Assembly: GCA_038046385.1 (NCBI GenBank)
Contig: JBBSWH010000001.1
Coordinates: forward strand, 119,211 to 183,210
Length of the DNA: 64,000 nucleotides
Source: Nanobdellota archaeon
GTDB lineage: Archaea; Nanobdellota; Nanobdellia; Woesearchaeales; GW2011-AR4
Reading direction: 5' to 3'
Below are positions 10,362 to 62,725 of this stretch, one piece after another (position 1 is the first letter of the stretch; every line of letters starts with the position of its first letter). Both the position numbers and the translations under genes were made by a program. The notes beneath the pieces are model-generated. The model was not told the origin of the DNA, ran no database searches, and saw only the letters and a program-made list of their open reading frames with translations.

Positions 10362-10411
10362 AGTAGTTACTAATAGTAAGATTTAAATAATAATTTTGAT
10401 TTCTAGAGTGA

Positions 10412-10795
10412 ATGGCAGTTGAAATGAATGATGGGCTAAGATATCAGATATTTTTAGCGCAGATAAATGGGAGGACAAAATTAACAGAATTACAGCAAGG
10501 CCCTCTAGAGAATATGGTTTTGTACGTTCCTCACAATTCCAGTACTCTTGATATGGCAAGCGTAACAGCATTGCCCATTAGCGTACTAGACTCAGAGTTT
10601 ATAGTTTTTATGAAGGATGAAACTCATTTGATTGAAATGAGTCGTGGTTCTACCTCACTTCAAGATGTAATAGGAGCAGCGGCCAGGGAAGCACATAAGC
10701 GATTGCATGAATTTGTAACAATTCTTCCGGCTTTTGACCCAAAAGAAGGACCGCTAAAATACTGCTTAGCATTCTATACGCCAACTGTTCAATAA
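10412..10795 (+). CDS. Hypothetical protein (orphan)
   Basis: 127-aa ORF; TATA at 10382-10389 preceded by AGTAGTTA at 10362-10369. Confidence 0.6.
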   Translation: MAVEMNDGLRYQIFLAQINGRTKLTELQQGPLENMVLYVPHNSSTLDMASVTALPISVLDSEFIVFMKDETHLIEMSRGSTSLQDVIGAAAREAHKRLHEFVTILPAFDPKEGPLKYCLAFYTPTVQ

Positions 10796-10846
10796 TTATT
10801 CTTTCAAAAAACAGCTTTTAATCAAAAGTTTTCTGCAGACTCTCCC

Positions 10847-10973
10847 AAAAAGTAAACTTTATATTGCAAAAATACTGCGTATTTTTTAACATAAAGTTTC
10901 CTAAAAAGTAAACTTTATATTGTGAAAATCTTCGATTTTCTAACATAAATTTCTCGAAAAGCAAAGCTTTTCG
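10847..10973. repeat. Tandem fold-back repeat, two units of about 56 bp, abutting a promoter
   Basis: AAAAAGTAAACTTTATATTG at 10847 and 10903; internal hairpins AAAATAC-TGC-GTATTTT, GAAAATC-TTC-GATTTTC and CGAAAAGC-AAA-GCTTTTCG. Confidence 0.8.
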
Positions 10974-11008
10974 TTAAATTTATATACTCCCTACTCAAGA
11001 GTAGGGTT

Positions 11009-11185
11009 ATGCACGAATTAGAATGCAGAAGCTGCGGATACAAATTCAAAAGCGCAAAGATTCCGCCTAGATGCCCCTATTGCTCAAAGGAAGCAGTTGG
11101 ATTAAGAAAAGGCGCGCAAGATTTGATTGACGAGACTCTTGACGAAGTAGGCCAGATGGACGAAGAGCGCAGCAGAAGAAATTAA
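11009..11185 (+). CDS. 58-aa zinc-ribbon microprotein
   Basis: Manual translation MHELECRSCGYKFKSAKIPPRCPYCSKEAVGLRKGAQDLIDETLDEVGQMDEERSRRN*; TATA about 24 nt upstream. Confidence 0.82.
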   Translation: MHELECRSCGYKFKSAKIPPRCPYCSKEAVGLRKGAQDLIDETLDEVGQMDEERSRRN

Positions 11186-11210: not shown

Positions 11211-12653
11211 TCATTCTTTCTTATCTTCAGTTTTCTCTCTTTTGATTAATTTCATTATTGGCTTTCTTCCGTATTTGAAAACAAGCATCCCGAATATTCC
11301 GAAAAGTATTATCGGCGCAATAAAAGGATTCTTTGTCAAAATTCCGTCGCTTCCCACTAGGTTTCCGCTTAAAGATGCAAAACCCGTGCCTACTTTTTTG
11401 TAAAGTGGCCTGTTGTCATGAATCATTACATTTGATGCAAGCACTCCATCTCCTTTACCTTTGGCTACATCAAGAACTTCCTGCAGTGCGTCTTTTAAAG
11501 GGGTGCTGTTTGAAGGGAAAAAAATGCTGTAAACTCCCAAAGGGACTTCTTTTGAAAGGTCTATATCAAGAATTTTGCCAGGCGCTATATTCAATTTTTT
11601 TGTTATTGGATACTTGTTTAGTTCATTTTGTATAATAAATGTAAGCTCATCTTCAAAAGGAATGTTTCCTATATTCTCTATTTTGACAAATTCATTGTCG
11701 TAGTTTACCTTAACCTCCCTGACTACGGATATGTTTACCTTGGATACATCCTTGAGGTTCTTGTAATAAGCCGTTAGAATATATTCTCCTGGCTTTGCAA
11801 ACTGGCTTAGCTCATATTCTATTTTCTGGTTGCTTTGGATTTCTTTTGCAAAGACTTTGTTTTCTTCTGAATCAGAAAATTCAAGCGAAAGCGTTACATT
11901 GATGACATCGCCGGCCTGGTCAAGCAGTATCGGCGTTATTTCCATCTTTGCTCCGGGAAGAAATTGGCTGCTGCTTAATTCTGACTTTATTGATGTAGGA
12001 ATTGCAGTCACTTCAAGCTCAACATTGGAAGACCCCAGATTGTTTTTTGCATCAAGAACACTTATGCTTATTTCATGCATTCCGGATTTTATATCTTTTT
12101 TGAGGCTGATTGGCGCTGTGAATTTCCCGTCTTTAACCTCTGCTTCATAATTTTCATCATCAAGGGTTATCTTTGCAGATGCCTTTAATTCATAATTTCC
12201 AAATGATTCTTTTACAAATCCGGTTATGTCGATGTTTTCCCCCGGTAATGCAGTTATCTTATCTTTGAAATTAGCTATTGATAACTGGTCTATAACTTTG
12301 AATGAAGCAGATGTTTTTTGCTCAACAATTGAATTATCGTTTGTAGTTAATTCGCCTGTTATTGCGCAGTCTCCCATCATGGACGCTGTTGCCGGCAATT
12401 CCGGCACATTCAAAGCGGTTGCAAAATTTGCTTCCAAAGCTACAGGCGTCATAAAATACTGCATCTTGTAAGTTCCGCATGAAAGCGTCATTTTGAAAAA
12501 ACCTTCAAATTCTGCGTTTTGTTCAACCGTTGCAGACGCCTTTATCTTGTTGCCTAGATTGTATGAAGGCTGGTCTGTTGTGAGGGAGATATCAGCAAGA
12601 GCAGACGGGATAACAATAAAAGCCAGAACAAAAAGCAAGATTATTCTTTTCAT
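11211..12653 (-). CDS. Secreted beta-rich (Ig-like) protein with C-terminal membrane anchor
   Basis: N-terminal signal peptide; C-terminal TM helix followed by a basic tail. Confidence 0.75.
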   Translation of the reverse strand: MKRIILLFVLAFIVIPSALADISLTTDQPSYNLGNKIKASATVEQNAEFEGFFKMTLSCGTYKMQYFMTPVALEANFATALNVPELPATASMMGDCAITGELTTNDNSIVEQKTSASFKVIDQLSIANFKDKITALPGENIDITGFVKESFGNYELKASAKITLDDENYEAEVKDGKFTAPISLKKDIKSGMHEISISVLDAKNNLGSSNVELEVTAIPTSIKSELSSSQFLPGAKMEITPILLDQAGDVINVTLSLEFSDSEENKVFAKEIQSNQKIEYELSQFAKPGEYILTAYYKNLKDVSKVNISVVREVKVNYDNEFVKIENIGNIPFEDELTFIIQNELNKYPITKKLNIAPGKILDIDLSKEVPLGVYSIFFPSNSTPLKDALQEVLDVAKGKGDGVLASNVMIHDNRPLYKKVGTGFASLSGNLVGSDGILTKNPFIAPIILFGIFGMLVFKYGRKPIMKLIKREKTEDKKE

Positions 12654-12713
12654 TGGCTAAAATGGCTATATCTTGTTTATATAATTTACTATTATAGAAT
12701 GGTTGTTGTAACC

Positions 12714-29506: not shown

Positions 29507-30712
29507 CTAGGTAATCTTTGTGATTTTCTTTACTTCTTCTGCAAAAATTTCAGCTTCTTTCTCTGTGTTGTAAAAATAAACAGATGCCCTTATGCTTCCT
29601 TCAATCTTTCTTTTGTTAAACCAGCTGTGGGCGCAGTGGAATCCGCTCCTTACCATTATCTTTTTTGACGACTCAAGCATCTTTGCAGCTTCATGCGGGT
29701 TTATTCCTTTTATATTGAAAGAGAATATTCCGCTTCTTTTTTCCGGGTTCTTTGGCCCGAGTATGGATATTTTTTCATTTGCAATTAGGATGTCCGTGAT
29801 TATTTTATTTAGCTTTATTTCGTGCGCTTCGATTTTGCCAATGCCTGTATTTTTCAGGTACCTGCACGCTTCCCCCAGGCCGATTATGCCTGCATAGTCC
29901 TGCAGCCCTGCCTCAAATTTCATCGGGACATCTTCTTCAATGTATCCTTCATAAGTAGAATCTTTTACAGTCTCTCCGCCGACAATGAACTGGTCCAGCT
30001 GCTCAAGAAGGCTCTTTTTTCCGTAAAGAACTCCTGTTCCAGTCGGTCCAAGCATCTTGTGGCCTGAAAACGCAAGAAAATCCACATCCAGGTCTTTAAC
30101 ATCTATCCTTTTCCCGGGAGCAGCCTGGGCGGCATCAACTAGGGTGAGAGATTTGTTTTCATGCGCAATTTTTACAATATCTTTTATCGGGTTTGTTATT
30201 CCGTCGACGTTTGAAGTGTAAACCACAGAAACAAGCCTTGTTTTTTTGGTTATCGCCCTTTTGAAATTTTCAATATTGAATGTCCCATCATCATTTGTAT
30301 GCGCAACTATCACCTTTACCCCTTTCTTTCTGAGCCTAAGCCAGGGTATCAAATTTGAGTTGTGCTCTTTGTCTGTGATTATTATTTCATCGCCGTTTTT
30401 GAACTCAAGCCCGTTTGCAACAATGTTGATTCCTTCTGTCGTGTTTCTTGTAAAAACAATTTCAGAGTCTGATTTTGCATTGATGTGGCTTCTTACTGCT
30501 TCCCTTGATTTTGCAATTTCATCTTCGACTTTTTTTGCAAAAGAATGCGAGCTTCTTCCGGCGCATGCAGTGTAATCATTGTAATACTCGTTCATCTTGT
30601 CAATAACCTGCTTCGGCTTTAAGGACATGCACGCGTTGTCAAAATAGATTATCGGCTTTGAAAGCATTGGAAAATCTTTCCTTGCTTTTTCAGGATCAAA
30701 TCCTAAAATCAT
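29507..30712 (-). CDS. sufS: Cysteine desulfurase (SufS-like, class V PLP enzyme)
   Basis: YFDNA, EHNSN, DAAQ, FSGHKMLGPTG and RSGFHCA motifs. Confidence 0.9.
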   Translation of the reverse strand: MILGFDPEKARKDFPMLSKPIIYFDNACMSLKPKQVIDKMNEYYNDYTACAGRSSHSFAKKVEDEIAKSREAVRSHINAKSDSEIVFTRNTTEGINIVANGLEFKNGDEIIITDKEHNSNLIPWLRLRKKGVKVIVAHTNDDGTFNIENFKRAITKKTRLVSVVYTSNVDGITNPIKDIVKIAHENKSLTLVDAAQAAPGKRIDVKDLDVDFLAFSGHKMLGPTGTGVLYGKKSLLEQLDQFIVGGETVKDSTYEGYIEEDVPMKFEAGLQDYAGIIGLGEACRYLKNTGIGKIEAHEIKLNKIITDILIANEKISILGPKNPEKRSGIFSFNIKGINPHEAAKMLESSKKIMVRSGFHCAHSWFNKRKIEGSIRASVYFYNTEKEAEIFAEEVKKITKIT

Positions 30713-31626
30713 TTTTTCAGCTCCCTGTCGATTATTGTCTTAAACGTCCTGAACGGCTTTGGCCCTGTAATCCTTTGCCCGTTGATGAAAAAAGTCGGCG
30801 TTCCTGAAACTCTTGCAAGATATCCCTGCGATGTGTCTGAATCAACTTCATTTTTATATTTCTCGCTTTCAAGGCATTTGCTGAATTTTGAAGAATTCAT
30901 TCCTGCTTTTTCTGAAAGCTCAACGAGCAGTTTGCTGCTGAAGTTCTGCTGGTTTTCAAAAAGGAGATTATGGTATTCAAGATATTTTCCCTGCTCGATT
31001 GCGCATTCTGCTGACAGCGCAGCAATATATCCTGTGTCGTGCCTTGGGATGACCATTGTCTTGAACTGCAGGTTGACCTTTCCGTCATAATATTCAAGCA
31101 CTTCACGCATAATCGGCTCTGCATGTTTAGTGTACTGGCAGGCGTAGCAGCCAAATTCTATAATTGTCAATTGCGCATCCTTATTCCCTATTATTGGATC
31201 ATTTGCTTCAACTTGAGGAATCACAGGCGGCCCTGAAATATTGCTTTCTGATGCTGAAATTGCGCTGTTTGACCCTGTCGGATCAAGAAGGCAGAATCCG
31301 ACATCAGAAGGCCCGTTGCAGTTCCCATATTGGACATAGTTATAAATTCCAACTGAAGATGAATATGTGCTCCATATGAACAATGCCAGTATTACCCAGG
31401 ATATTATTTTGTAGTTTCTAAGTATGCATCCTGCAGCTTTTGGAGAAAACTTAAAAATACTTCCTGCCATTGAAGCTTTTATCCTGTCATCAAGGCCGCT
31501 TTTGCATTTCCTTAAAGTTACAGTGTGAAAAATGCAGTTAAGAGAATCTTTTGCAAGCTTCCTGTACTTTAAGCTGAAGATTCCGAGTATTGCAAAAACC
31601 GGCAGTGCTATTATGCATAAAACCAT
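30709..31626 (-). CDS. Membrane-anchored DsbA/thioredoxin-like protein
   Basis: N-terminal TM helices; IIEFGCYACQY and GTPTFFING. Confidence 0.85.
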   Translation of the reverse strand: MVLCIIALPVFAILGIFSLKYRKLAKDSLNCIFHTVTLRKCKSGLDDRIKASMAGSIFKFSPKAAGCILRNYKIISWVILALFIWSTYSSSVGIYNYVQYGNCNGPSDVGFCLLDPTGSNSAISASESNISGPPVIPQVEANDPIIGNKDAQLTIIEFGCYACQYTKHAEPIMREVLEYYDGKVNLQFKTMVIPRHDTGYIAALSAECAIEQGKYLEYHNLLFENQQNFSSKLLVELSEKAGMNSSKFSKCLESEKYKNEVDSDTSQGYLARVSGTPTFFINGQRITGPKPFRTFKTIIDRELKK

Positions 31627-31698
31627 TTATTTTCCACCTTGTATTTGCCGAGCCTGTATCTATTAATTAAGCTTTTGCTTTTGTTTGATATCATAAAA

Positions 31699-31789
31699 TG
31701 GGGCTGCCCGGATTTGAACCGGGGCCGGACCCAGATTGGCAACTCAGTTGTCCCCAAGGGCCAATTCTACCTAGCTATACTACAGCCCC
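31699..31789 (-). tRNA. tRNA-Pro(GGG) with 18-nt intron at 37/38 (31734-31751)
   Basis: Acceptor GGGGCTG/CAGCCCC; T arm CCCGG-TTCAAAT-CCGGG; anticodon stem GGCCC/GGGTC; canonical BHB with TTGG/CCAA central helix and GGA and TCT bulges. Confidence 0.92.
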
Positions 31790-31878
31790 AATATGAAGAA
31801 GCAATCTGTTTCTTATTTTTAAATCTAATGCAAAGGTTTTAAAATAGGGTTTATTAACCTACTTATTAGGAGTATCAA

Positions 31879-32433: not shown

Positions 32434-32440
32434 ACTGATT

Positions 32441-40633: not shown

Positions 40634-40857
40634 ATCCGACAGTTCCTAAACTATTAAGTTAACTAAAAATGAACGACAGAGTCTTAGTAAAAATAGACGG
40701 AACCACTGCAGTTTCACCTGGATTGTTGGGCATTTCAAACTTAACTGCTACATTCCAGAATAATGCTTTTAGCGGCATTGTCCAATAAACTATTAATTCT
40801 CTATTCTCCAGTAGTAATAAAAGAAAGGCTTATAAATCAATAACTTACCCAGAAGTT

Positions 40858-42329: not shown

Positions 42330-42404
42330 AATTTTAACCCAATTTTTAATGTTTTTATAGTTATTGTTTTCGTTTTGACAAGTTTTATTAATTAACAATA
42401 TTGT

Positions 42405-43610
42405 ATGTTTGTTATGGACTATAAAAAAACACTACAGTATCTTTATAGCCTTGAAAGCCCGAAGATAAAACTAGGATTGGATAGGGTTCAAACACTTCTA
42501 GATAAAATAGACAATCCAGAAAAAAGCCTTAAGTGCGTGCATGTCGCAGGCACAAACGGAAAAGGAAGCGTTTGCGCAATGATTTTTCATGTTTTGATGG
42601 AAGCGGGCTATAATGTCGGCCTTTACACAAGCCCTCATCTGAAGAAATTCAACGAAAGAATAAGAATAAATGACTCTTTTATAACGGATAAGGAAATTGC
42701 TGATTATTTTCTGAAAGTGAAGCCACACATTACGAGCCAAAGTTTTTTTGAAATAACCACTGCAATGGCCTTTCTCTATTTCAAAGAGAAAAATGTTGAT
42801 TTTGTTGTCTTGGAAACTGGGCTTGGAGGAAGGTTGGATGCAACAAACGTTGTTATCCCGCTCGTTTCTGTTATAACTAACATCGGATTGGAACACGCAG
42901 ATTTGCTCGGCAACACAATAAAAAAAATTGCTTATGAGAAAGCCGGAATAATAAAACAGAATGTGCCTGTTATTACTGGTGCAAGGGGCGAAGCATTAAT
43001 CACAATCAAAAAAATTTCAAAGGAAAGAAACTCGCAGTTGCATTTGATGAAGAAATATCCGAGAGTCAATTTTAAGCACATTATTGGGAGATACCAACAG
43101 CAAAATAAAAACATTGCATTGACGACAATAAATATATTAATAAACCATAATCTAATCAAAATAAATAAAAACCAAATCAAAAAAGGAATCGAAAAAACAA
43201 AATGGCATGGTCGCTTGGATTTTGTTTCAAATAACGTGATGATTGACGCGTCCCATAATGCAGACGGATTCAAATTGCTTAAAAAAGAATTATTAGTTAT
43301 AAAAAAGAAAAAGCATTTCAAAAATATTATTTTTGTTATCGGAATTCAAAGCGACAAGGACGCTTTTTCAATGCTTAAAACATTAAGTTCCATATCTTCA
43401 AAGTTTGTGTTTACAAAATCCAACAATCCAAAAGCCTTGAGTCAAAAAAAACTGCTTACTATTTATAATAGTATAAACAAAAACAGAAAATATCTAGCTA
43501 TCCTTGTTGACAATCCAAAAAAAGCATTAAACTACGCAAAGAAATTGGCAAAAAACAATGAATTAATCGTGTGTACGGGCTCTATCTATATGATTGGTGA
43601 CTTGATTTGA
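42405..43610 (+). CDS. folC: Folylpolyglutamate/dihydrofolate synthase
   Basis: HVAGTNGKGS, YTSPHL, ETGLGGRLDATN, DASHN and TGSIY motifs. Confidence 0.93.
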   Translation: MFVMDYKKTLQYLYSLESPKIKLGLDRVQTLLDKIDNPEKSLKCVHVAGTNGKGSVCAMIFHVLMEAGYNVGLYTSPHLKKFNERIRINDSFITDKEIADYFLKVKPHITSQSFFEITTAMAFLYFKEKNVDFVVLETGLGGRLDATNVVIPLVSVITNIGLEHADLLGNTIKKIAYEKAGIIKQNVPVITGARGEALITIKKISKERNSQLHLMKKYPRVNFKHIIGRYQQQNKNIALTTINILINHNLIKINKNQIKKGIEKTKWHGRLDFVSNNVMIDASHNADGFKLLKKELLVIKKKKHFKNIIFVIGIQSDKDAFSMLKTLSSISSKFVFTKSNNPKALSQKKLLTIYNSINKNRKYLAILVDNPKKALNYAKKLAKNNELIVCTGSIYMIGDLI

Positions 43611-43993
43611 GCGACTGGAAATACGACATTTGGAGAGAAGGCAAATATTTAGACCTGTGGCACGTGAATCACACACTTGCAGGATCTCTCTTGGCAGGAA
43701 TAACTTTCTTTTTTAATATTAAACTGTTGCTGGGCTTCGTAGTATCTGTTCTTCTCATGCTGGCATGGGAATTTTATGAGATTATTGTTGATATAGAAGA
43801 AACAATTGCCAACCAAATACTGGATGTTTTGACAGGTATATTGGGTTTTTTTGGCATGTTTTATCTGCTGCAAATTATAAATCACTCATCAGGTCTTCAG
43901 GTTTTTCTTGTTGTATTGGTAGTATGGCTATCTCTGGAATTGTGGGGTTTTGTGGCTTATAAAAAAAAGAAGGCAAAGATACGAAGACGCTAA
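43607..43993 (+). CDS. Membrane protein
   Basis: Four TM helices with H...WE..E...D pattern. Confidence 0.7.
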   Translation: MSDWKYDIWREGKYLDLWHVNHTLAGSLLAGITFFFNIKLLLGFVVSVLLMLAWEFYEIIVDIEETIANQILDVLTGILGFFGMFYLLQIINHSSGLQVFLVVLVVWLSLELWGFVAYKKKKAKIRRR

Positions 43994-44067
43994 ATCCAAA
44001 AAGACATCTCTAAAAGAAATGATTTGATTGTTGCAATAAATTATATCTATATAGTTGAAGAAATATT

Positions 44068-44553
44068 TTAAAGCTGAATTGGTATAGGCACTGGTACATA
44101 TCCAAGAAGATGATTATAAATAACTCTTAGTTTTTCCTGTACTTTAACAGTTGATGGCAATCTTGATAACTCTCTTTCGAGTTGTGCTTCCAAATCAGGA
44201 GCATTGCAATGAATTTGGGTGCCTTGCCTTTCAAAATTTCGTTCAGGATGGTGGGTCAGGCCAGCTTCAACACCCTTTTTTTCAAAAATGACCGTTTCTT
44301 CAAGAACATAGGGCTTGGCTTCTGTATCGCCTTCACGGAAACCCTGACTGTAATGATATATTCTTTCCCTTCTCATGGAAACTTTTCTTTTATTTGGGTC
44401 ATATGGTTCTACATTTTTCCTGCCATCAATCGGGACACAATCATCATCCATAAGTTTATCTGGAATCGATTCATCTGTAGGATGCTTAGGCTTAACAAAC
44501 CCAAGACCAATCAAGAACCCCTTCATTACTTTATCATCAAGTGTTACTCTCAT
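44068..44553 (-). CDS. Hypothetical protein (orphan)
   Basis: 161-aa ORF divergent from purL. Confidence 0.6.
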   Translation of the reverse strand: MRVTLDDKVMKGFLIGLGFVKPKHPTDESIPDKLMDDDCVPIDGRKNVEPYDPNKRKVSMRRERIYHYSQGFREGDTEAKPYVLEETVIFEKKGVEAGLTHHPERNFERQGTQIHCNAPDLEAQLERELSRLPSTVKVQEKLRVIYNHLLGYVPVPIPIQL

Positions 44554-44588
44554 TCAATAGAGAAATGATAACTTATTTTTAAATGTTA

Positions 44589-44652
44589 CCGCAACCTATC
44601 GAAAACCATTGGTTTTCGGAAGGTTTTGAAAGCGCGGCTTTCCGCAACCTAT
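44589..44652. repeat. Single 53-bp fold-back unit at the purL promoter
   Basis: CCGCAACCTAT direct repeat at 44589 and 44642 encloses CGAAAACC-ATT-GGTTTTCG and GAAAGC-GCG-GCTTTC hairpins. Confidence 0.75.
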
Positions 44653-44687
44653 AAATATACCCATCCCACTCAAAATATTGTGAAATA

Positions 44688-47030
44688 ATGGGGGCTGTAG
44701 ACGTAGACACAATCAACATAAAAAGTATGTCAGACAGCGAATTGTCTGCTTTCCTGAAAAAGAACGCTATTTCTTTGAGTCTTTACGAAGCAAAACGCGT
44801 TGCAGAATTGATAGGGAGAAACCCAACAATAACAGAACTGTATATATATAATACTCAATGGAGTGAACACTCTTCTTACAAGAGCAGCAGGCCTGTGCTA
44901 AAAGCACTACTGCCAACACAGGCTCCAAACGTAATTCTTGGCCCTGTTGAGGATTCAGGAATTATAGAATTAGGGTATATTAATGATGAACGATATGGGG
45001 TTGTCATTTCACATGAAAGCCATAACCATCCAAGCCAAGTTGTTCCATATGAAGGCGCAGCAACCGGTGTTGGGGGATGCATACGTGATGTTTTATGCAT
45101 GGGCGCAAAAGTAATTGCAACAGCAGACCCATTAAGATTTGGGAATCCAAAAGGAAAGAACAAAAACAAGGTTAAGTATGTTGCAAATGAAGTAATAAAC
45201 GGCATCGCAGGCTACGGAGATGCAGTTGGCATTCCAAACATAAGCGGAGATGTTTATTTTAATGATTCTTTTGATGACAATTGCTTGGTTAATGTAATTA
45301 CTCTTGGAGTTGTAAAAGAAAAAGATATAATTCACAGCTATGCTCCAAAAAATGCAGAAGGATATGACATTATAATAGTGGGAAAGGCAACAGACAATTC
45401 CGGCTTTGGCGGAGCAGCATTTGCATCTGTTATTTTGGACGATAAAGACAGAGACATCAATAGAGGGGCTGTGCAAGTTCCAGACCCTTTCCTAAAAAAT
45501 GTGATAATACGCGCTTCTTATGCTGTGTTTGAAGAAGCAAAGAAAAGAAACATCGTTCTTGGATTCAAGGATATGGGCGCAGGCGGGATAATGTGCAGCA
45601 CATCAGAATTATGCGTTGATGGAAATTACGGCGCAGATATTGACTTAAGCAAAGTAAACGTTTCAATGAACATTCCTTCTTACATGATTGCCTGCTCTGA
45701 AACACAGGAAAGATTTACTTATATTTGTCCCCCTTCTTTTACAAAAACACTTTTGAAAATATACAACGAGGATTTTGAGCTTCCGCAAATGAGCGTCAAT
45801 GCTGGCGCTTATGTAATTGGCAAAGTAACAAAAAATGATGATTACATTTTGAGGCACGAGGGAAAAATCGTGTGCAACTCTCCTGTAAAAGTCGTTACAC
45901 AGGGAATAAAATATGAGCGCGAGAAAAAAGCGCCAAAAAGAAACTTTACAGAACCTGATTTAAAAGAGCCAAAAGATTATGCTAATGCAGTCCTTTCTGT
46001 TTTAAGGCATCCAAACGTTGCAAGCAAAGCCAAGGCATACAAGCATTACGATACAAGCGTTATGGGCAATGCAGTGATTGAAACAGGATACGCAGATGCC
46101 GGCGTGATGAAAGTCGTTGATAATAGTTCTTTTGCAGTTGCGTTAAAGGCAGACTGCAATCCAAGATACTGCAAAATTGACCCATACTGGGGCGCTGTGA
46201 ATGCAACAGCAGAGTCAATGAGGAATGTTGCAGCTGTCGGAGCTATTCCAAGCGCATTAACAGACTGCCTGAATTACGGAAATCCGGAAAAGCCAGAATC
46301 ATTTTATGATTTTTACGAAGGCGTTAGGGGAATAGCAGATGCGGCAAAGAACATCTATTACAAGGGCACAAAACACCCAGTTCCCATAGTTTCTGGGAAT
46401 GTAAGCTTCTACAACGAATCGGCTTCAGGAAAATCAATTGACCCATCACCTATAGTTGCATGCATTGGCGTAATGAAAGACTACAGCAAAGCAATCACAA
46501 TGAAGATAAAAAAAATCGGAACAACGTTGGTTCTTGTCGGAGAAAGAAAAGACGAATTAGGCGGGTCTGTTTATTACAATGTCAACAAGGAAGACGGCGC
46601 AAATGTGCCGATAATAGATTTTGAAATTGAAAGAAACACGATTTATGCGGTTATTGATGCAATAAACTCAAATTTATTATTGGCGTGCCACGACATATCT
46701 GACGGGGGAATTGCAACGACAATATCTGAAATGGTGCTTGGCGGAGATGCAGACGGGGAGATTGGCGCAGAAATAGATTTTGGATTTTCAAGCTTAAGAA
46801 ATGATAAATCCCTTTTTTCAGAATCATCTGGTTTTGTGATGGAAGTTGATGATGCAAATGTTGAGAGAGTTTTGAAACTGCTTAAATTCTACAAATTAAA
46901 TCCAATAACACTTGGAAAAACAGGCGGAGATAAACTGATGATTAAAAACAAAGGAAAGAAAATTGCAGGTGTTCCTATTTCAAAAATGAAAGAAGCGTGG
47001 ACAACCGGCTTTGCGGAGGCTTTGGAGTAA
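44688..47030 (+). CDS. purL: Phosphoribosylformylglycinamidine synthase subunit PurL
   Basis: WSEHSSYKSS, ESHNHPS, GAATGVGG, DMGAGG, SETQER and HDISDGG motifs. Confidence 0.96.
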   Translation: MGAVDVDTINIKSMSDSELSAFLKKNAISLSLYEAKRVAELIGRNPTITELYIYNTQWSEHSSYKSSRPVLKALLPTQAPNVILGPVEDSGIIELGYINDERYGVVISHESHNHPSQVVPYEGAATGVGGCIRDVLCMGAKVIATADPLRFGNPKGKNKNKVKYVANEVINGIAGYGDAVGIPNISGDVYFNDSFDDNCLVNVITLGVVKEKDIIHSYAPKNAEGYDIIIVGKATDNSGFGGAAFASVILDDKDRDINRGAVQVPDPFLKNVIIRASYAVFEEAKKRNIVLGFKDMGAGGIMCSTSELCVDGNYGADIDLSKVNVSMNIPSYMIACSETQERFTYICPPSFTKTLLKIYNEDFELPQMSVNAGAYVIGKVTKNDDYILRHEGKIVCNSPVKVVTQGIKYEREKKAPKRNFTEPDLKEPKDYANAVLSVLRHPNVASKAKAYKHYDTSVMGNAVIETGYADAGVMKVVDNSSFAVALKADCNPRYCKIDPYWGAVNATAESMRNVAAVGAIPSALTDCLNYGNPEKPESFYDFYEGVRGIADAAKNIYYKGTKHPVPIVSGNVSFYNESASGKSIDPSPIVACIGVMKDYSKAITMKIKKIGTTLVLVGERKDELGGSVYYNVNKEDGANVPIIDFEIERNTIYAVIDAINSNLLLACHDISDGGIATTISEMVLGGDADGEIGAEIDFGFSSLRNDKSLFSESSGFVMEVDDANVERVLKLLKFYKLNPITLGKTGGDKLMIKNKGKKIAGVPISKMKEAWTTGFAEALE

Positions 47031-47031
47031 A

Positions 47032-47595
47032 ATGAAAGAATTAGAATTTCAAGACCTAATGACTAAGCTAATTAATGAGGGTTTAGACAACTCTAAATTT
47101 ATTTGTAAAAGAGGGGAATCGGTTTTATACGAATTAAAAGTAGATGAAGAACTTAATATTGTTGGCAACCCGAAAGACCCTAAAAGGGGGCAGGGAGCCT
47201 TTGAAACTGATGTTACAATATTTGCAATTAAAAAAAATCTGCAAATACCTTTTATAGTAATTGAAGTAAAAGAGCAGATAACCTCACATGATATAATCAC
47301 TTACAGCAATAAAGCCTCTAGGCATAAGATGGTTTATCCTTATTTAAGGTATGGTCTTGTTTCTTACGATTTGGATACAATACCCAATAGGTTTTTTAAA
47401 CATAATGAAGCGATAGATTTTTTCTTAGCTGTTAAGGAATACTCAAAAAACGAAGAAAAATTAAAAAATATTTTGTTAGAATTAATAAAGAATGAACTTA
47501 AGATTTTTGAAGAATTGCAGAAAATTCTGCATGATAAAAATAAACCAAATTTTTACCAAAGTATACCATCATTAAAAAATTTTGAACACGAATAA
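47032..47595 (+). CDS. PD-(D/E)XK nuclease-like protein inserted in the pur operon
   Basis: FETDVTIF...IVIEVK; AT-rich. Confidence 0.6.
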   Translation: MKELEFQDLMTKLINEGLDNSKFICKRGESVLYELKVDEELNIVGNPKDPKRGQGAFETDVTIFAIKKNLQIPFIVIEVKEQITSHDIITYSNKASRHKMVYPYLRYGLVSYDLDTIPNRFFKHNEAIDFFLAVKEYSKNEEKLKNILLELIKNELKIFEELQKILHDKNKPNFYQSIPSLKNFEHE

Positions 47596-47596
47596 A

Positions 47597-48415
47597 ATGC
47601 CAAACAAAAAGCCAAACATTGCGGTCGTTTACTTTCCCGGCAACAACTGCGAAGAGGAATCTTTGAAAGCAGCTCTTGCAGCAGGAATGGACGGGAAGAT
47701 TGTAAGATGGAATGAAAGAAAAGGAATTGAAAAATACGACGGATATATCATTCCGGGCGGCTGGGGATATGAAGACAGAATACGCGCAGGAGTTATCGCG
47801 GCAAAAGATCCTGTTTTTGCAATCATAAAAAAAGAGTCTGAAAAAGGAAAACCAGTTCTTGGTATTTGCAACGGCGCGCAGGCTTTGGTGGAATGCGGCA
47901 TGATTCCTGGATTAAAAAACAAAGTCGAGATGGCACTTGCGCCAAATATCAATCCTTTTGTGAGTGGATATTACTGCACATGGGTTCATTTGAAAAACAC
48001 AGAAAATCAGTCAAGATGTGCTTTCACAAAATTTACAGGAAAAGATGAAGTTATCCCGGTCCCGATTGCGCACGGAGAAGGGAGATTTACGACAAACGAC
48101 AAGGATTTGATGAAAGAACTTGTTAAAAACAAGCAGATAATCTTCAAATATTCTACTAAAGACGGTAAAATAGACAATAAGTTTCCAACAAACCCAAACG
48201 GAGCAATGCTTAACATTGCAGCAGTCTGCAACAAGAAAGGAAATGTGATGGCAATCATGCCTCATCCTGAACGTGCAACATTCATAAGGCAATTGCCCTA
48301 CATTACGAGCTTGAAAAACAACGCAGCAGGCAAGCTTGCAGAAATGGAAAAGCCGGCTCCGGCAATGAAATTATTTGATTCGATGAAGAAATATATCGAA
48401 GAGGAATTATTATAA
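47597..48415 (+). CDS. purQ: PurQ glutaminase subunit
   Basis: FPGNNC, GICNG, AHGEG and MPHPER motifs. Confidence 0.95.
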   Translation: MPNKKPNIAVVYFPGNNCEEESLKAALAAGMDGKIVRWNERKGIEKYDGYIIPGGWGYEDRIRAGVIAAKDPVFAIIKKESEKGKPVLGICNGAQALVECGMIPGLKNKVEMALAPNINPFVSGYYCTWVHLKNTENQSRCAFTKFTGKDEVIPVPIAHGEGRFTTNDKDLMKELVKNKQIIFKYSTKDGKIDNKFPTNPNGAMLNIAAVCNKKGNVMAIMPHPERATFIRQLPYITSLKNNAAGKLAEMEKPAPAMKLFDSMKKYIEEELL

Positions 48416-48441
48416 TAATGGGCGAGCTGGTTAATAAATAA

Positions 48442-49701
48442 TTATTTGAACTGATAATTTCTGGGTATGAACACATGACCATTAGGGGACAGTGTGAATC
48501 TCCTTGCAACGTCTTCTTCATGATAAATTCCTATTCTTGTGTTGTCTGGAATGTGTACTCCTTTATCTACAACTCCTTTGTTAATTCTTACATTTCTCCC
48601 GGTTCCATTGTTTCCCATAAATATTGTTTCCGTCATTTCTCCATGATCTCCGACTTCAGTGTTATACCCAACAATACAATCGTCAAGCCTGCTTTTTTTC
48701 CCAATTGATACACCATTTGCAAGTACAGATCCGGTTACATCTCCTGCGTTAACAATTTGTTTTCCATGGGATTCGTCAAAAGTCACTATGGGCCAGCCAG
48801 GATTTTCAAGGCGCAATGGAGGATGTGTGCCGGTCAGGTCAAGATTAGCCTCAACAAATTGATCAAGTGTCCCTACATCTCTCCAATAACCGGTTGTTTT
48901 AACTTGATTAGGGGTGTTTCTTGTATAATCATACATCCTGACTTTCCTGCCTTCCCTTAAATAATGAGGAATTACATCAAAACCAAAATCATGAACTGAG
49001 TACAAACTTGGGTTGGCCCTAACCAAATCCTTATTTTCTTCATCTGCTGTTCTTTTCTTTGCATCAACTGTTAAGGCAGTAACAAGAGAATTTCTATTAA
49101 ATACATAATTCCCCATAGATGCCCAGCAGAAATTTTCATTTCCGGGAATAGGCGCGGGATCCGATGGCTTTTCCTGAAATCCTATAACATTGCCATTTTC
49201 ATCGGCAACAAGAACTCCAAAAGTGTTGGCAGCCAAGTCTCTCCTGACTGGCATGGCGGCTATAGTTAAATCTGATTTACTATCGAGATGGAACTGCTTC
49301 ATTTGAGAAATGTCCATTAAGTATACATGATCACCCGCAAATACAGAAACCAGTTGTGGCTTTTGTGATGTTATTAATCCTAAATTTCTATACACAGCAT
49401 CAGCAGTTCCTAAGTAATGGCCATGTTCAGGGTGGACTACTCTGATAAATTCAGCACCTTCCTGCTCAAAAACAGGTTTCCAGGCGTGTTCTATATGCCT
49501 CTCTAAAGAAGCTGGCTTGTATTGCGCCACAACTACTATATTTCTGCTGCCGGAATTATAATGATTGTTAAGGGGAAAATCTATTATCCTCCATTTTCCT
49601 CCAAAAGGGCTTGCTGGCTTTGCCCTATCTTGGGTTATGGGGAATAACCTTTTTCCCTGGCCACCTGCTAAAATGATATCGAGAGATGTTACCTGTTTCA
49701 T
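48442..49701 (-). CDS. glgC: Glucose-1-phosphate adenylyltransferase (ADP-glucose pyrophosphorylase)
   Basis: LAGGQGKRL, RAKPA.PFGG, GTADAV, GDHVY, FQEKP, SMGNY, DFG and YWRDVGT motifs. Confidence 0.9.
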   Translation of the reverse strand: MKQVTSLDIILAGGQGKRLFPITQDRAKPASPFGGKWRIIDFPLNNHYNSGSRNIVVVAQYKPASLERHIEHAWKPVFEQEGAEFIRVVHPEHGHYLGTADAVYRNLGLITSQKPQLVSVFAGDHVYLMDISQMKQFHLDSKSDLTIAAMPVRRDLAANTFGVLVADENGNVIGFQEKPSDPAPIPGNENFCWASMGNYVFNRNSLVTALTVDAKKRTADEENKDLVRANPSLYSVHDFGFDVIPHYLREGRKVRMYDYTRNTPNQVKTTGYWRDVGTLDQFVEANLDLTGTHPPLRLENPGWPIVTFDESHGKQIVNAGDVTGSVLANGVSIGKKSRLDDCIVGYNTEVGDHGEMTETIFMGNNGTGRNVRINKGVVDKGVHIPDNTRIGIYHEEDVARRFTLSPNGHVFIPRNYQFK

Positions 49702-49819
49702 AGGTCTAGTTAAGATTATTGCTTTAAAAGCCTTTCTGTTTATAACTACTAAATAGAAGCAACATATACATATTTCTTAGAAATATTTATTTGCGCATTA
49801 ATCCATAATTATTTAAATA

Positions 49820-49885
49820 AAATTATTTGACTTGATGAATAGGCATATTGAAGATGAAGCGCTATAATACTAGGCGAGCTGGTTA
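49820..49885 (+). repeat. Diverged duplicate of the purQ 3' end (48368-48433)
   Basis: Ungapped 66-bp alignment, 52/66 identical by manual count; KLFDLMNRHIEDEAL* versus KLFDSMKKYIEEELL*. Confidence 0.85.
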
Positions 49886-49925
49886 TGGTGCCAGCGAGCA
49901 CAATCTTTTGTCCGAAGGACGGAAA
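49876..49925 (+). other. Two-hairpin structured element (copy 2), followed by an A-rich spacer
   Basis: GA-GCTGGT...GCCAGC-GAG...TTGTCCGAAGGACGGAAA. Confidence 0.7.
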
Positions 49926-50066
49926 GAAAATTTCAATAAAATAAAATCACAAAAACAATAACGAAACTCAATAACGAAAAACACATTAACGAAAATTAAA
50001 TTTAAAATAACAATTATTAAAATAAATAACAATTAAAAATTAAATAAAAATATAAAATAACCTAAA

Positions 50067-51266: not shown

Positions 51267-51838
51267 ATGGGACGGAGAGTAATCTGATAACTCAGATTGC
51301 AGAATGGTTTGCAAATGAAGACAACCTCGACGGACTTCAAAGACAAGCAGAGAGGATAGTCCCGGGATACGGAGAAGATGTGGTTCATCAAACTTATGCC
51401 AAAGCTTATGACTATTTAGTTAGACATCCGGATTTTGTTCTTAGAAAATCAATAAATCGGTGGGTTTATGCCTTAGCCAGGAACGCAGCATTAGATATTC
51501 TAAAACACGATAAATCTGTGAGGCCTTATCAAGATTATATTGCCTCTTTGTTTTATGGTGAAGACCCAACACCTTTTCTTGACACAACTTTAGGAGAGAC
51601 AGAAGAAGTGACTTTAGCGCGCATAGTTAATGAAGAGGTATCCAGACTGCCGCAGATTAATCGTGAAGTTATAATATTACATTATTATGAAAGAAAGGGA
51701 TACCCAGATATAGCAACATTGCTAGGCATAGGAATAAGTGCAGCAAAACAGAGGGCATTTAAAGGAAGGGGCATATTAAGCGAAGCAATTCTTTCCCGCG
51801 TTCAAAACATCCCTTATTGTTTAGAATCTGCAGCGTGA
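51263..51838 (+). CDS. Sigma-70 family ECF-type sigma factor-like protein
   Basis: Region 2 EDVVHQTYAKAY...RWVYALARNAALDILK; region 4 LPQINREVIILHYYE..GYPDIA.LLGI.ISAAKQRAFKGR. Confidence 0.8.
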   Translation: MNGTESNLITQIAEWFANEDNLDGLQRQAERIVPGYGEDVVHQTYAKAYDYLVRHPDFVLRKSINRWVYALARNAALDILKHDKSVRPYQDYIASLFYGEDPTPFLDTTLGETEEVTLARIVNEEVSRLPQINREVIILHYYERKGYPDIATLLGIGISAAKQRAFKGRGILSEAILSRVQNIPYCLESAA

Positions 51839-53453: not shown

Positions 53454-53545
53454 CTTTAACCACTAAAAAATAGATATTATATAAAAATGTTTTTAATGTG
53501 ATAATAACCAATTAGAACAATATTAAAACGCCAATTACTCTATTC

Positions 53546-58983: not shown

Positions 58984-61900
58984 ACAAGCCAAAAAAAGTA
59001 TTAGTATTGGGAAGCGGATCATTGAAGATAGGGCAGGCAGGAGAGTTTGATTATAGCGGAAGCCAGTGCCTGAAAGCATTGAGGGAAGAAGGAATAGGCA
59101 CAGTTCTCATTAATCCAAACATTGCAACAATCCAGACAAGCGAGGGAATGGCCGACAAAATCTATTTTCTTCCTGTAACGCCTTATTTTGTTGAGGAAGT
59201 CATAAAAAAAGAAAACCCGGATGGAATAATGCTTTCATTTGGTGGACAGACTGCATTAAATTGCGGTGTTGACCTTTACGACGCAGGAATTTTTGAAAAA
59301 TACAAAATAAAAGTTCTTGGAACACAGGTCGATGCAATCAAGATGACAGAAGACAGGCAATTGTTTGCAGACGCACTTAAATCCATAGACTTGAAAACGC
59401 CGGAAAGCGAGACTTCAAAATCAGTTGAAGAAGCGTTGAAAATTGCCGAGCAACTAACGTATCCTGTAATGATAAGGGTTGCTTACGCGTTGGGAGGAGC
59501 AGGTTCTGGTGTATGCTGGACAAGAGAAGAGCTGGAAACAAGATCAAAAAGAGCATTTGCATATTCCACTCAGGTTCTTGTTGAAAAATATCTCGGTGGA
59601 TGGAAAGAAATAGAATATGAAGTTGTAAGGGACGCGTACGACAACTGCATTACAGTCTGCAACATGGAAAACTTTGACCCGATGGGAATCCATACTGGAG
59701 AATCAATTGTTGTTGCCCCGTCGCAAACTTTGACAAATTCAGAATATCACAAATTAAGGGAGATTGCAATAAAAGTAATAAGGCATCTTGGAATTGTTGG
59801 CGAGTGCAACATTCAGTATGCATTTGACCCGCATTCAGAGGATTACAGGATAATAGAAGTCAATGCGCGCCTTTCAAGAAGTTCTGCTCTTGCGTCAAAG
59901 GCAACAGGCTATCCGCTTGCTTTTGTTGCTGCAAAGCTCGCTTTAGGATATTCACTTGTTGAAATTGAAAATTCAATAACAAAAGTCACAAAGAGCTGCT
60001 TTGAGCCTGCTTTGGATTATATTGTTGTAAAAGTTCCAAGATGGGATCTGCAGAAATTCAAAGGAGTTAGTTTTGAAATCGGAAGCGAGATGAAAAGTGT
60101 AGGCGAAGTCATGTCAATAGGAAGAAAATTTGAGGAAGCGATACAAAAAGCAATAAGGATGCTGAACATTAATCTGCACGGGCTTGTTGCAAACAATTTC
60201 ACTTTTAATGATATTGACAAGGAATTAAAAAACCCGACTGACAAAAGACTGATTGTGATTCCTGAAGCAATCAAAAGAGGCTACTCAATTGATAAAATAC
60301 ACGAGTTTACAAAAATAGATAAATGGTTTTTGCACAAGATAAAAACTGTGGTGGAAACAGAAGCAGAATTGTCAAAGTACATCATAGAAAATGTTCCTCC
60401 GCAGCTGATAAAAAAAGCAAAACAGCAGGGATTCTCAGATTTCCAGCTTGCAAGATTAATGTTTAAGGATGCACAAGGCAATCTTGAAAACGAAATAACC
60501 CGGGTGAGGGAATTAAGAAAAAAGAACAAAATAATTCCGGTTGCAAAACAGATTGACACATTGGCTGCAGAGTATCCTGCAAAAACAAATTATCTTTATA
60601 TGACCTATAACGGAGATGATGATGATGTTTCTTTTGAAAATCACAAAAGCGCAATTGTTCTCGGCTCAGGTGCATACAGGATAGGCTCTTCTGTAGAGTT
60701 TGACTGGTGCTGCGTTAACTCTGTAGCTACCTTAAAGAAACAGGGATACCAGACAATCATGATAAACTACAATCCGGAAACCGTAAGCACAGATTATGAC
60801 ATATGCGACAGGCTTTACTTTGATGAATTAAGCCTTGAAAGAGTTCTTGATATTTATGAAAAAGAAAATCCAAGCGGGGTTGTGGTCTCAATGGGCGGCC
60901 AGATTCCAAATAATCTGGCAATGAGGCTGCACAGGAAGAATGTAAAAATACTTGGAACAGCGCCTGAAAGTATAGACAATGCAGAAGACAGGCATAAGTT
61001 TTCCTCGATGCTTGATATATTAAAGATAGACCAGCCGGAATGGGCAGAATCCAAATCAATAGACGAAGCTGAGAAGTTTGCCGACAAAGTAGGCTATCCT
61101 GTGCTGATAAGGCCTTCTTATGTATTAAGCGGAGCTGCAATGAGAGTTGCATCCAACAAGGAAGAGCTTGACCAGTATCTGAAGAAGGCAGCTGAAGTTT
61201 CAAAAGAGCATCCTGTTGTTATAAGCAAGTTCATAACGAATGCAAAAGAAATAGAAATTGATGCAGTTGCAAAAAACGGAGACATTGTGATATATGCAAT
61301 CTCAGAGCACATCGAAAATGCAGGCGTTCATTCAGGAGACGCCACAATGGTTTTGCCGCCGCAGTTCACTTATTTGCAGACAATCAAGAAAATAAAAAGC
61401 ATAGCAAAGAAAATTTCAAAGTCTTTGAACATAACCGGGCCTTTTAACATACAGTTCATTGCAAAAGAAAACCACATCAAAGTCATAGAATGCAATTTAA
61501 GGGCATCAAGAAGCTTCCCATTTGTTTCAAAAGTAACCAAGCACAATTTCATCGACATTGCAACAAAGGCAATGCTAGGAATGGAAGTCAAAAAAGAGTA
61601 TAATACAATGGATATTGATTATGTTGGAGTCAAGGCTCCTCAGTTTTCATTCTCCAGATTGCACGGCGCAGACCCCGTATTAAGCGTGGAGATGGCATCA
61701 ACAGGTGAAGTGGGCTGCCTGGGAAATGACCTGAATGAAGCATTTTTGAAATCGCTGCTGTCTGTTGGCTTCGTTATTCCAAAATCAAGCATTTTATTGT
61801 CAACAGGCCCGATAAAAAATAAAGCTTACCTTTTGGAAAGCATAAAAAAACTCGATAAAAGAGACTACAAGCTGTATGCCACTCCCGGAACAGCAAAGTT

Positions 61901-62183
61901 TTTGGAAGAAAACAAGGTAAAAGTTGAGACTCTTTACTGGCCAGATGAGCCAAAAGAGCCAAACGTTTTGACTTATATTCAGGAAAAGAAAATCGACCTT
62001 GTGATTAATATTCCAAAAACCCTTGAAAATCAGGAATTGGAAAATGATTATACTATAAGGAGAAAGGCAGTTGACTTCAATATTCCGCTTTTAACCAACG
62101 CCCAGATTGCAAAGCTCTTCATAGAGTCAATCTGCAAGAAAAAGATGGAAGAGCTGGAAATCAAGGCGTGGGACGAATATTAG
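58980..62183 (+). CDS. carB: Carbamoyl-phosphate synthase large subunit
   Basis: [11 protein letters not shown], two ATP-grasp halves and a C-terminal MGS domain. Confidence 0.98.
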
Positions 62184-62185
62184 GA

Positions 62186-62605
62186 TTAACTTCTTTTAGT
62201 ACTTTGATAAAGTTCTCTTACTTGATCAATTAAAAGTCTTGTGTTGTATGGTTTTGTATGATGAAAATCAAAATCGACACCTTGAGTTAATCCCAAATCT
62301 CCTGTTGGAGAAATTCCAGAATCAGCAACAATTACCATTTTACATTTTTCTTTTATTCTTTTAACTAAATCAGACGACATGCTAAACTTATCTGACGTGC
62401 CAGAATTATTTATTACATTAAATGGGTCTACTATAACGACTTGGTATACTCCATTATTCAGTCCAGCTTCAACCAAAGAGAAGTTATTATTTGCATCAAC
62501 TAGGTTAGGAAATTCTCTTTCTAATTCTTCTAATTCAAATGTCGCTTGTGTAAGGTCATCAAGCATTAAAATTCTTTTGCCTTCTGCTTCAGTTACAGTT
62601 TTCAT
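62186..62605 (-). CDS. Divergent CheY-like receiver-domain protein (orphan)
   Basis: KRILMLDD...YQVVIVDP...DFHHTKPY; start ATG 62605. Confidence 0.6.
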   Translation of the reverse strand: MKTVTEAEGKRILMLDDLTQATFELEELEREFPNLVDANNNFSLVEAGLNNGVYQVVIVDPFNVINNSGTSDKFSMSSDLVKRIKEKCKMVIVADSGISPTGDLGLTQGVDFDFHHTKPYNTRLLIDQVRELYQSTKRS

Positions 62606-62725
62606 TAAGAATAGGGGATGTTTTTTATTTATAAATGTATCTCTTTTCACCACTTTAAAATAGCTAATAATTAGACTACACATTTAAATATAGCCTATTG
62701 GTTACTCGTCTAAAGGGTCTTTTAA

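Follow-up and report, generated by a model that had tools for sequence, protein, structure and literature searches.

Upstream activating sites of archaeal promoters include those of GvpE and EarA. Comparable sites next to the transcription factor B (TFB) recognition element (BRE) have been described for Ptr2 of Methanocaldococcus and TFB-RF1 of Pyrococcus (PMC4158304). The closest described sites are those of the TrmB family, which, as presented in the same source, comprise TACT-N3-AGTA (Pyrococcus/Thermococcus TrmB), TACT-N7-8-GAGTA (Halobacterium TrmB), ATAATACT repeats, and the Thermococcales glycolytic motif (TGM) site TATCAC-N5-GTGATA of TrmBL1/Tgr, and which mediate activation from upstream of the BRE and TATA box and repression from downstream (PMC4158304). 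TrmBL2 of Thermococcus is described as a nucleoid protein that binds AT-rich DNA widely (PMC11840125). Here, we analyzed a 64,000-nt stretch (hereafter the window; positions 119211-183210 of contig C1) of a Nanobdellota archaeon genome of the order Woesearchaeales (G000; 1.28 Mb, 19 contigs, 38% G+C, estimated assembly completeness 85%), in which a 20-bp palindromic box stands at a fixed distance upstream of the TATA boxes of scattered genes. The box is a real and statistically solid cis-element; the genes that it marks are distinct in composition and specific to the genome. The box itself is not special to this genome, being conserved across the sampled order and class. As to its kind, an archaeal transcription-factor site with a TrmB-family reader is plausible; the unusual features are that it is associated with the accessory genome and that it forms part of a composite, portable promoter unit. 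We know of no experimental work on gene regulation in Woesearchaeota and their relatives, nor of any cultured member.

The gene set used for the analysis consisted of 1294 calls based on open reading frames (ORFs) and spanned 88% of the genome. TTTAWA was sharply enriched at -30 to -26 relative to the start codons, and most transcripts of this genome are therefore leaderless. The logo of 268 leaderless promoters contained a purine-rich BRE (MRAAA) followed by TTTAWAWA and showed no conserved positions upstream of the BRE, indicating that the box is not a general promoter element. The target promoters conformed to the archaeal leaderless arrangement, in which TATA lies ~26-30 nt from the start codon with a purine-rich BRE on its 5′ side. 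An earlier note on this DNA had described the 8-mer AGTAGTTA and a 17-bp palindrome with a 1-nt spacer at one of its sites; the real element is an imperfect palindrome of 20 bp, TWAYYACT-N4-AGTAGTWA, in which AGTAGTTA corresponds to the proximal arm, the one nearer to TATA. In an alignment of 13 seed promoters picked by the proximal 9-mer alone, a selection in which the distal arm played no part, the distal arm was conserved (T at -11 in 13/13, A at -6 in 11/13, then C/T and T) and was the reverse complement of the proximal arm. Arm matching peaked at a 4-nt spacer (mean 5.6/8), and the 1-nt register came second (4.5; remaining spacers, 1.7-3.9) because ACT-ACT is self-repeating, which also accounts for the spacer proposed earlier. 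The core of the 13-site matrix, TACT-N4-AGTA, represents an inverted repeat on TACT/AGTA half-sites of the TrmB type. In the arrangement that we call class 1, the 3′ end of the box lies 11-14 nt ahead of the TATA of leaderless promoters, its centre precedes the first T of TATA by 21-24 bp, close to two helical turns, and the box spans roughly -62 to -43 from the leaderless transcript start. An extra block was present between box and TATA, with TAGAAAG found in 8/21 targets versus 4/438 other promoters and the shorter GAAAG in 12/21 versus 15/438. The promoter unit of ~45 bp is thus composed of the palindrome, an A-rich linker, a (T)AGAAAGR BRE block, and a consensus TATA.

What exceeds chance is the placement of the box and not its raw frequency: AGTAGTTA occurs in 28 copies in the genome versus ~78 expected by a hand estimate from base composition, which is not above chance. 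An unbiased scan of every 7-mer within the 62 nt preceding 462 TATA-anchored promoters ranked TTAGTAG, GTAGTTA, and TAGTAGT highest for concentration at one position; these words are overlapping parts of one motif, and 6/6, 6/6, and 9/15 of their copies, respectively, fell within one 4-nt window. The statistic was the binomial minimum p-value, since raw maximum window counts of 8-10 arise by chance for common AT-rich 7-mers and carry no information. When each upstream region was rotated to generate a null, one run out of 200 gave a p-value as low as the real one, and the positional bias that the earlier note had proposed to look for was therefore evident. Genome-wide, the 29 best matrix matches (~26 distinct places) were all intergenic, the non-coding share of the genome being 12%. 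When the matrix was scored at a fixed position (site end 9-16 nt ahead of TATA) in 463 TATA-anchored promoters, 21 reached at least 11 bits, 17 of these at least 14 bits, and the two control offsets yielded 3 promoters each at the 11-bit level. Scores below 0 at the same position were obtained for 415/463 promoters, in agreement with the earlier proposal of a box shared by scattered, unrelated genes and absent from ordinary promoters. Outside the 13 seeds, 8 promoters scored at least 11 bits; the corresponding number for 300 column-shuffled matrices was 0.44 on average and 3 at maximum. The target promoters are dispersed over 11 contigs, and the window, which makes up 5% of the genome, is a rich patch containing 5 of the 21. 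Such a pattern very probably reflects the binding site of some specific factor.

The strings listed in the earlier note were all found in place on the strand of the respective gene, and the fixed spacing was also confirmed, with the arm ending 11-14 nt before a TTTAWAWA-type TATA that itself lies 22-33 nt before the start codon. Five sites of the window are clear. On the forward strand, the box at 10350-10369 (22.7 bits; gap, 12 nt; AGTAGTTA at 10362-10369; TATA, 10382-10389) precedes the leaderless start at 10412 of a 127-aa orphan without a Pfam or NCBIfam family, and that at 40798-40817 (13.1 bits; gap, 11 nt; AGTAGTAA at 40810-40817; TATA, ~40829-40836) precedes a 167-aa orphan starting at 40858, again with no family in Pfam or NCBIfam. 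On the reverse strand, the box at 38391-38410 (23.3 bits; gap, 13 nt; AGTAGTTA at 38391-38398; TATA, 38377-38370) lies ahead of a 289-aa calcineurin-like (PPP-type) phosphoesterase (Pfam Metallophos, E 1.5e-18), whose start at 38346 is an ATG within the longest ORF, in frame with its first start codon, and the box at 49743-49762 (21.2 bits; AGTAGTTA at 49743-49750; TATA, 49729-49722) lies ahead of the start at 49701 of a glgC-like nucleotidyltransferase (Pfam NTP_transferase, E 4.6e-48); the labels of PPP phosphatase and glgC given earlier to these two genes were borne out by the domain matches. A further reverse-strand box at 35446-35465, which reads TAACTACT-TTAT-AAAGGTTA from 35465 to 35446, combines a perfect distal arm (TAACTACT) with a weak proximal arm (AAAGGTTA), scoring 9.0 bits in the gene orientation and 15.5 bits in the opposite orientation (gap, 12 nt; TATA, 35433-35426). 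The gene behind it (34312-35403, reverse strand, start at 35403; 363 aa) had been taken for an M29 peptidase, a label for which no Pfam or NCBIfam match was obtained.

The genes behind the box differed from those behind ordinary promoters in both annotation and composition. No Pfam family (E <= 0.001) was found for 13/21 targets (62%) versus 38/136 (28%) of other promoters (Fisher p = 0.005); for this baseline, every non-target TATA-anchored gene on contigs C2, C5, and C6 was scanned (136 out of 438 in the genome), and the baseline was rich in ribosomal, tRNA-synthetase, replication, and translation genes, none of which occur in the target set. An NCBIfam scan of 46 proteins left 43 without a family. 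The targets with families included two of the three clear receiver-domain genes of the genome, the glgC-like nucleotidyltransferase, a phosphoglucomutase/phosphomannomutase, a glycoside hydrolase family 3 (GH3) enzyme with a twin-arginine N-terminus, the calcineurin-like phosphoesterase, an S-adenosylmethionine (SAM) methyltransferase, and one weak match. By codon position, the G+C content of targets versus non-targets was 0.49 versus 0.44 at the first position (GC1; p 1e-4), 0.385 versus 0.32 at the second (GC2; p 1.5e-6), and 0.31 versus 0.39 at the third (GC3; p 6e-8), and the overall G+C content showed that the targets are not AT-richer (0.396 versus 0.388). Lysine was depleted in the targets (5.8% versus 10.4%; p 7e-7) and Ala+Gly+Arg+Pro was elevated (24.7% versus 19.4%; p 7.5e-6). 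In GC3, 19/21 targets fell within the bottom third of the non-target genes, and the composition differed even from that of Pfam-less non-target genes (p 5e-4). The description of these genes as "alien" in the earlier note thus has a measurable counterpart in GC3, lysine content, and the Pfam-less share.

To assess conservation in the genus, positions 30001-50000 of the window were searched as DNA against 30 congeners, giving ~150 listed matches and 118 weaker ones beyond these. The flanking genes at 35478-36080, 38448-40091, 41295-43610, 44688-47030, and 47582-48415 were matched in most of the congeners, and the box-driven genes at 34312-35403, 37477-38346, and 40858-41361 had no match among the ~150 matches listed. 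Among the same matches, glgC was found in two congeners (G007, L167; G160, L166), where the gene and its promoter (window 48426-49826) were 82% identical; the identity of the flanking core gene 44688-47030 was below this value, at 72-76% (mostly ~75%). The glgC locus of these two genomes adjoins a thermosome-like gene, its position thus differing from that in the present genome, and its promoters keep the box, BRE, and TATA with a varied 4-nt spacer. In the one case examined, homology continued ~64 nt beyond the box, to the start of a divergent gene. The start of this divergent dehydrogenase-like gene beside glgC was intact in both congeners and broken off in the present genome. DNA of the window (34000-42000) was present in 13 listed sequencing runs, all of them DNA-type groundwater or unlabelled metagenomes, with no RNA run among the 13.

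The promoter unit was also widespread beyond this genome. With the pattern TAGTAGTWA-N10-14-TTTAWA, and with the reversed pattern as a control (totals summed by hand), 38 of 41 genomes, mostly of the order and including 24/24 of the genus, contained a match, amounting to 140 matches versus 37 control matches. In a phylum sample of 121 genomes, 87 contained a match, and the subset of 28 genomes from other orders of the class yielded 58 matches versus 25 control matches. The GAAAG block was visible in most matched strings. From nine genomes, 60 of 133 relatives' matches were fetched: an ORF of at least 40 aa started 22-54 nt past TATA in 49/60 (39 of the 49 at 28-34 nt), the distal arm was visible in many sites, and 31/49 of these ORFs lacked a Pfam family. 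The remaining ones included proteins with sigma-70 regions 2/4, a transglycosylase/transpeptidase, RelA_SpoT, HD, and NUDIX proteins, a glycosyltransferase of family GT2, a trypsin-like protease, a glgC orthologue, a Glu/Leu dehydrogenase-like protein, and AsnC- and ArsR-type helix-turn-helix (HTH) proteins. Among 75 target proteins from the present genome and its relatives, only four related pairs were found (glgC with each of two relatives, a dehydrogenase-like pair, and one in-genome paralogue pair), showing that the unit is conserved while the genes behind it differ by genome. The earlier suggestion that these genes may form one coordinated system has this small overlap of families against it. 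Low lysine content was repeated in the relatives' targets (6.2% versus 10.3% in 95 neighbouring ORFs; p 3e-8), and the GC3 difference against the same ORFs was not significant (p 0.09). The glycogen and sugar genes, receivers, and phosphatase of the present genome, together with the RelA/SpoT, HD, and NUDIX proteins of the relatives, may hint at a functional theme that recalls the response to starvation or stress. A DPANN survey reports that Woesearchaeota commonly have sigma-70 genes and other systems of bacterial type, and in its account of them leaves open how they are controlled (PMC8204110). The present genome contained no clear sigma-70 gene, with only a borderline region-4 match at window 51641-51766. 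Searches of the literature, one of them on DPANN promoters in general, found no description of the motif.

A profile search identified two full-length TrmB-model proteins in the present genome, one of which (P0003; C6:99864-100679) aligned from end to end with TrmBL2 structures (5bpd, E 5e-20) and carried the TrmB (PF01978, E 5.9e-19) and Regulator_TrmB (PF11495, E 1e-5) domains. Its RSYDVL segment, aligned with RTYDVL of TrmBL2, keeps the Tyr-Asp pair described as a DNA contact in the TrmB family (PMC4158304); its C-terminal domain is short. An orthologue was present in 40/41 relatives (63-90% identity), and the winged helix was almost invariant across 34 orthologues (62-90% overall identity), which would fit a target sequence unchanged across the class. 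The promoter of this gene in congeners carries TTACTACT, then ~24 nt containing the BRE and TATA, and TAGTAGTG immediately 3′ of TATA, an arrangement also given as TTACTACT ... TTTTAATAGTAGTG. TAGTAGT also stands immediately 3′ of TATA in four further families of the order, and AGTAGTA in a fifth, the remaining region having diverged; of five orthologues in other orders, two have ACTACT(A) ~10 nt past TATA. Two paralogues in other-order genomes have a class-1-like unit. The box at the promoter of the candidate gene is suggestive of an autoregulatory footprint. From these resemblances, we infer, tentatively and with somewhat less than even confidence, that the TrmBL2-like protein may be the factor reading the box. 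The TrmB-family idea raised in the earlier note thus fits in its TACT-N4-AGTA core and in the box at the TATA of a conserved TrmBL2-like gene, but the spacer departs from the published ones.

Two geometries of the box occur in the present genome: the box lies upstream at 21 promoters, and elsewhere it abuts or follows TATA. At C12:106, C14:27112, and C19:17023, the palindrome abuts TATA (gap, 0-2 nt) in place of the BRE, and these cassettes have a TATAAAGCTTTCGG-type leader after TATA. In the LAGLIDADG-domain gene at C6:7715-8485, AGTAGTTAT is located immediately 3′ of TATA and before the start (C6:7682-7715), and the box also lies past TATA at the orphan starting at window 53453 and at the gene of the candidate regulator in relatives. 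The 53453 site occupies 53457-53476 on the reverse strand (class 2; 16.9 bits), between TATA (~53486-53477) and the GTG start of this 116-aa, family-less protein. Across the genome, TAGTAGT shows only a small secondary peak past TATA, with 5/68 copies. In the mechanism that we propose, with the same reserve as the candidate itself, one conserved, dimeric, sequence-specific factor would bind the 20-bp palindrome. At class-1 sites, upstream of the BRE, it would help to recruit TATA-binding protein (TBP) and TFB, in the manner of TrmBL1, Tgr, and Halobacterium TrmB; where the box overlaps the BRE or lies just past TATA, as at its own gene, at orphan 53453, and at the cassettes with the TATAAAGCTTTCGG-type leader, it would repress. 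The unit would drive ~20 dispersed genes here and different genes in relatives, nearly all of them accessory, foreign-looking, or orphan. The tight phasing is what TBP/TFB contact requires, and the presence of two geometries in one genome, which matches the dual activator/repressor rule of TrmB, favours positive control at the upstream sites; we consider the chance that class-1 sites act positively to be evenly balanced.

Compared with the operators of TrmB, the present box resembles them in being an inverted repeat with TACT/AGTA half-sites, in showing two geometries in one genome, in occurring at the promoter of a TrmB-family gene, and in having sugar-storage targets (glgC, phosphoglucomutase, GH3), but differs in its 4-nt spacer, its longer 8-nt arms, and the added specific BRE block, and most of its targets are orphans and signalling genes rather than genes of sugar metabolism. 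Like the sites of Ptr2 and TFB-RF1, it lies a short, fixed distance upstream of the BRE and TATA, compatible with TBP or TFB recruitment; those sites, unrelated in sequence to our motif, serve one or few promoters with weak core elements, whereas the present box serves ~5% of promoters with a strong core. The candidate reader has the same two-domain layout as TrmBL2 of Thermococcus kodakarensis/Pyrococcus furiosus (PDB 5bpd, 5box), but unlike the Thermococcus protein, it would recognize one distinct palindromic sequence whose place within promoters is fixed. The bacterial xenogeneic silencers H-NS, Lsr2, MvaT, and Rok recognize AT-rich DNA loosely and are tied to horizontally acquired genes. 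The situation here would be similar in that one predicted DNA-binding protein is associated with the acquired part of the genome, but the site is a specific 20-bp one that belongs to a complete promoter unit, and overall the targets have no higher AT content than other genes.

Several observations weigh against the candidate reader and its activating role. In other orders, 3/5 orthologues had neither AGTAGT nor ACTACT near TATA, and the candidate promoter of the present genome is degenerate, with TATGAGTG past TATA and an upstream site of 13.9 bits. The 4-nt spacer is unlike those of all published TrmB sites (N3, N5, N7-8), and the HTH proteins compared as readers were those matched by the TrmB model. 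The BRE/TATA score of the targets was higher than that of other promoters (13.8 versus 10.9 bits; p 2e-5), which is unusual for activator-dependent promoters, and Thermococcus TrmBL2 is characterized in the available accounts as a low-specificity chromatin protein and a repressor, not an activator (PMC4158304, PMC11840125). The last two points also speak for the main rival, a silencing model in which the same site, probably read by the same TrmBL2-like protein, would serve at class-1 promoters to nucleate the protein on the palindrome, from which it would spread or bridge over the strong BRE and TATA and hold accessory genes silent until a signal releases it. This model could accommodate the low GC3 and lower codon adaptation of the targets, as would be expected for rarely expressed genes, as well as the filament-forming, dimer-of-dimers nature of Thermococcus TrmBL2, and the TAGAAAGR block beside TATA could provide a second contact. 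However, the 11-14 nt phasing suits a protein-protein contact with TBP/TFB, which simple occlusion does not need; published archaeal repressor sites, as far as covered in PMC4158304, overlap the BRE/TATA or the start site; and at other loci the present genome does place this box at overlapping positions of that kind, suggesting distinct meanings of the two geometries. We therefore regard silencing from class-1 sites as rather unlikely.

Somewhat less likely still, the box could be the operator of a different conserved factor outside the TrmB family, such as an Lrp/AsnC, ArsR, or unclassified winged-helix protein. About a dozen winged-HTH candidates and one AsnC-type gene are present in this genome, one AsnC-type and one ArsR-type gene are located behind the box in relatives, and the assignment of the TrmBL2-like protein is based on resemblance and promoter footprints. 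Nevertheless, no other recognized regulator gene of the genome had a promoter site of at least 11 bits, the TACT/AGTA core is a TrmB-type half-site, and the receiver protein L002, itself a target and considered as a class-wide factor, was rejected since it had no match (E 1e-5) in five motif-bearing relatives. A portable promoter cassette, a ~45-bp unit that would travel with genes or be copied and whose palindrome would serve recombination or mobility rather than regulation, appears improbable. Near-identical units, e.g., TAGTAGTAAAAATAGAAAGATTTATA, do stand ahead of unrelated genes in many genomes, the targets are accessory genes, and glgC relocates together with its promoter, at an identity exceeding that of the flanking core gene; however, the linkers joining box, BRE, and TATA vary in length and sequence between unrelated flanks, the arms are kept while the spacer varies as in a protein-binding site, and the sites are dispersed without integron-like arrays or junctions, the homology running past the box in the single glgC junction case so that the box is not the junction. 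A separate promoter class for a second TFB or TBP is hardly credible: the BRE block of the targets is unlike that of other promoters, but the genome search found one TFB and one TBP gene, which makes a second basal factor unlikely within the limit of an 85%-complete assembly, and TFB contacts fall short of -62. A chance pattern, weighed together with it, is excluded by the rotation null, the shuffled matrices, and the conservation in other genomes.

The finding, with a TrmBL2-like protein as the preferred reader, supplies a precise cis-element, a named candidate protein, and a predicted regulon that is recognizable from sequence alone in many of the sampled genomes of the order and class. The link to foreign-looking, genome-specific genes bears on the control of bacterial-type genes in DPANN, a matter touched on in the DPANN survey (PMC8204110). 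Should acquired genes have the unit as their common switch, this would account for foreign genes becoming expressible in archaeal hosts, and the unit would serve as a convenient marker for accessory genes in metagenomic bins. A more far-reaching proposal, which we consider doubtful, is that the class-wide ~45-bp unit and the near-invariant TrmBL2-like protein would form a dedicated "plug-and-play" control of the mobile gene pool in Woesearchaeota-type DPANN. Were this the case, genes acquired from bacteria or exchanged between these archaea (sigma-70-like, penicillin-binding, RelA/SpoT-like, TAT-signal, and orphan) would carry the unit, a recipient could switch its whole variable genome on or off together, and archaeal xenogeneic control would operate via a specific site instead of AT-richness.

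Two weaker sites of the window were included in the earlier note; their strings are present, at 6969-6976 and 62647-62654, but their scores are only 11.2 bits (with an ambiguous register) and 8.1 bits, respectively. The former (6966-6988, forward strand) has a good distal arm (TTACTACT) and a degenerate proximal arm, followed by a TAGAAAGG block, a TATA at 7002-7009, and an orphan start at 7032. The latter (62647-62666, reverse strand; gap, 11 nt; AGTGGTGA arm at 62654-62647; TATA, 62635-62628) precedes a 139-aa protein with a probable start at 62605 (ORF 62186-62683, reverse strand); the receiver label attached to this gene found no backing, as neither Pfam nor NCBIfam gave a match and the genome search with Response_reg missed the protein. 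Another weak box, at 12686-12705 (10.4 bits), is 2 nt from the TATA of a 480-aa gene (11211-12653). Flanked by two box-driven genes, the 408-aa ORF at 36193-37419 had a very low coding score (7.3) and no DNA match among the matches listed in the 30 congeners. The second TrmB-like gene (C6, ~77605-77650) has a palindrome of its own, GTGGTG-N9-CACCAC, just 5′ of TATA, which is probably a separate operator, and the true start of the gene probably lies downstream of the annotated TTG.

Among the targets elsewhere in the genome, L002 (C19:16164-16895) combines a receiver domain carrying an insertion with a ~95-aa C-terminal domain without a family; a related-locus search with it returned distant bacterial receivers only, and the box copy at C19:17023 lies ~60 nt upstream of its box promoter. 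Twin-arginine translocation (TAT)-like N-termini were observed on the box-driven protein L019 (C2:40072-41418) and on L062, L064, and L089 of relatives, and these TAT-like proteins include a GH3 hydrolase and a trypsin-like protease. The 160-aa "orphan" L011 (C10:42376-42858) shares 62% identity with the N-terminal part of a Glu/Leu dehydrogenase-like gene of at least 424 aa that stands behind a box in a relative (G019, L090), and may be a truncated or split gene. Further 7-mers were position-fixed upstream of TATA, namely CAATAAC (6/10; part of TTCAATAACGCC), GACATCT (5/6), CCACTGG (5/7), and TTCTTAT (5/6), and these may represent further shared boxes or repeated promoters.

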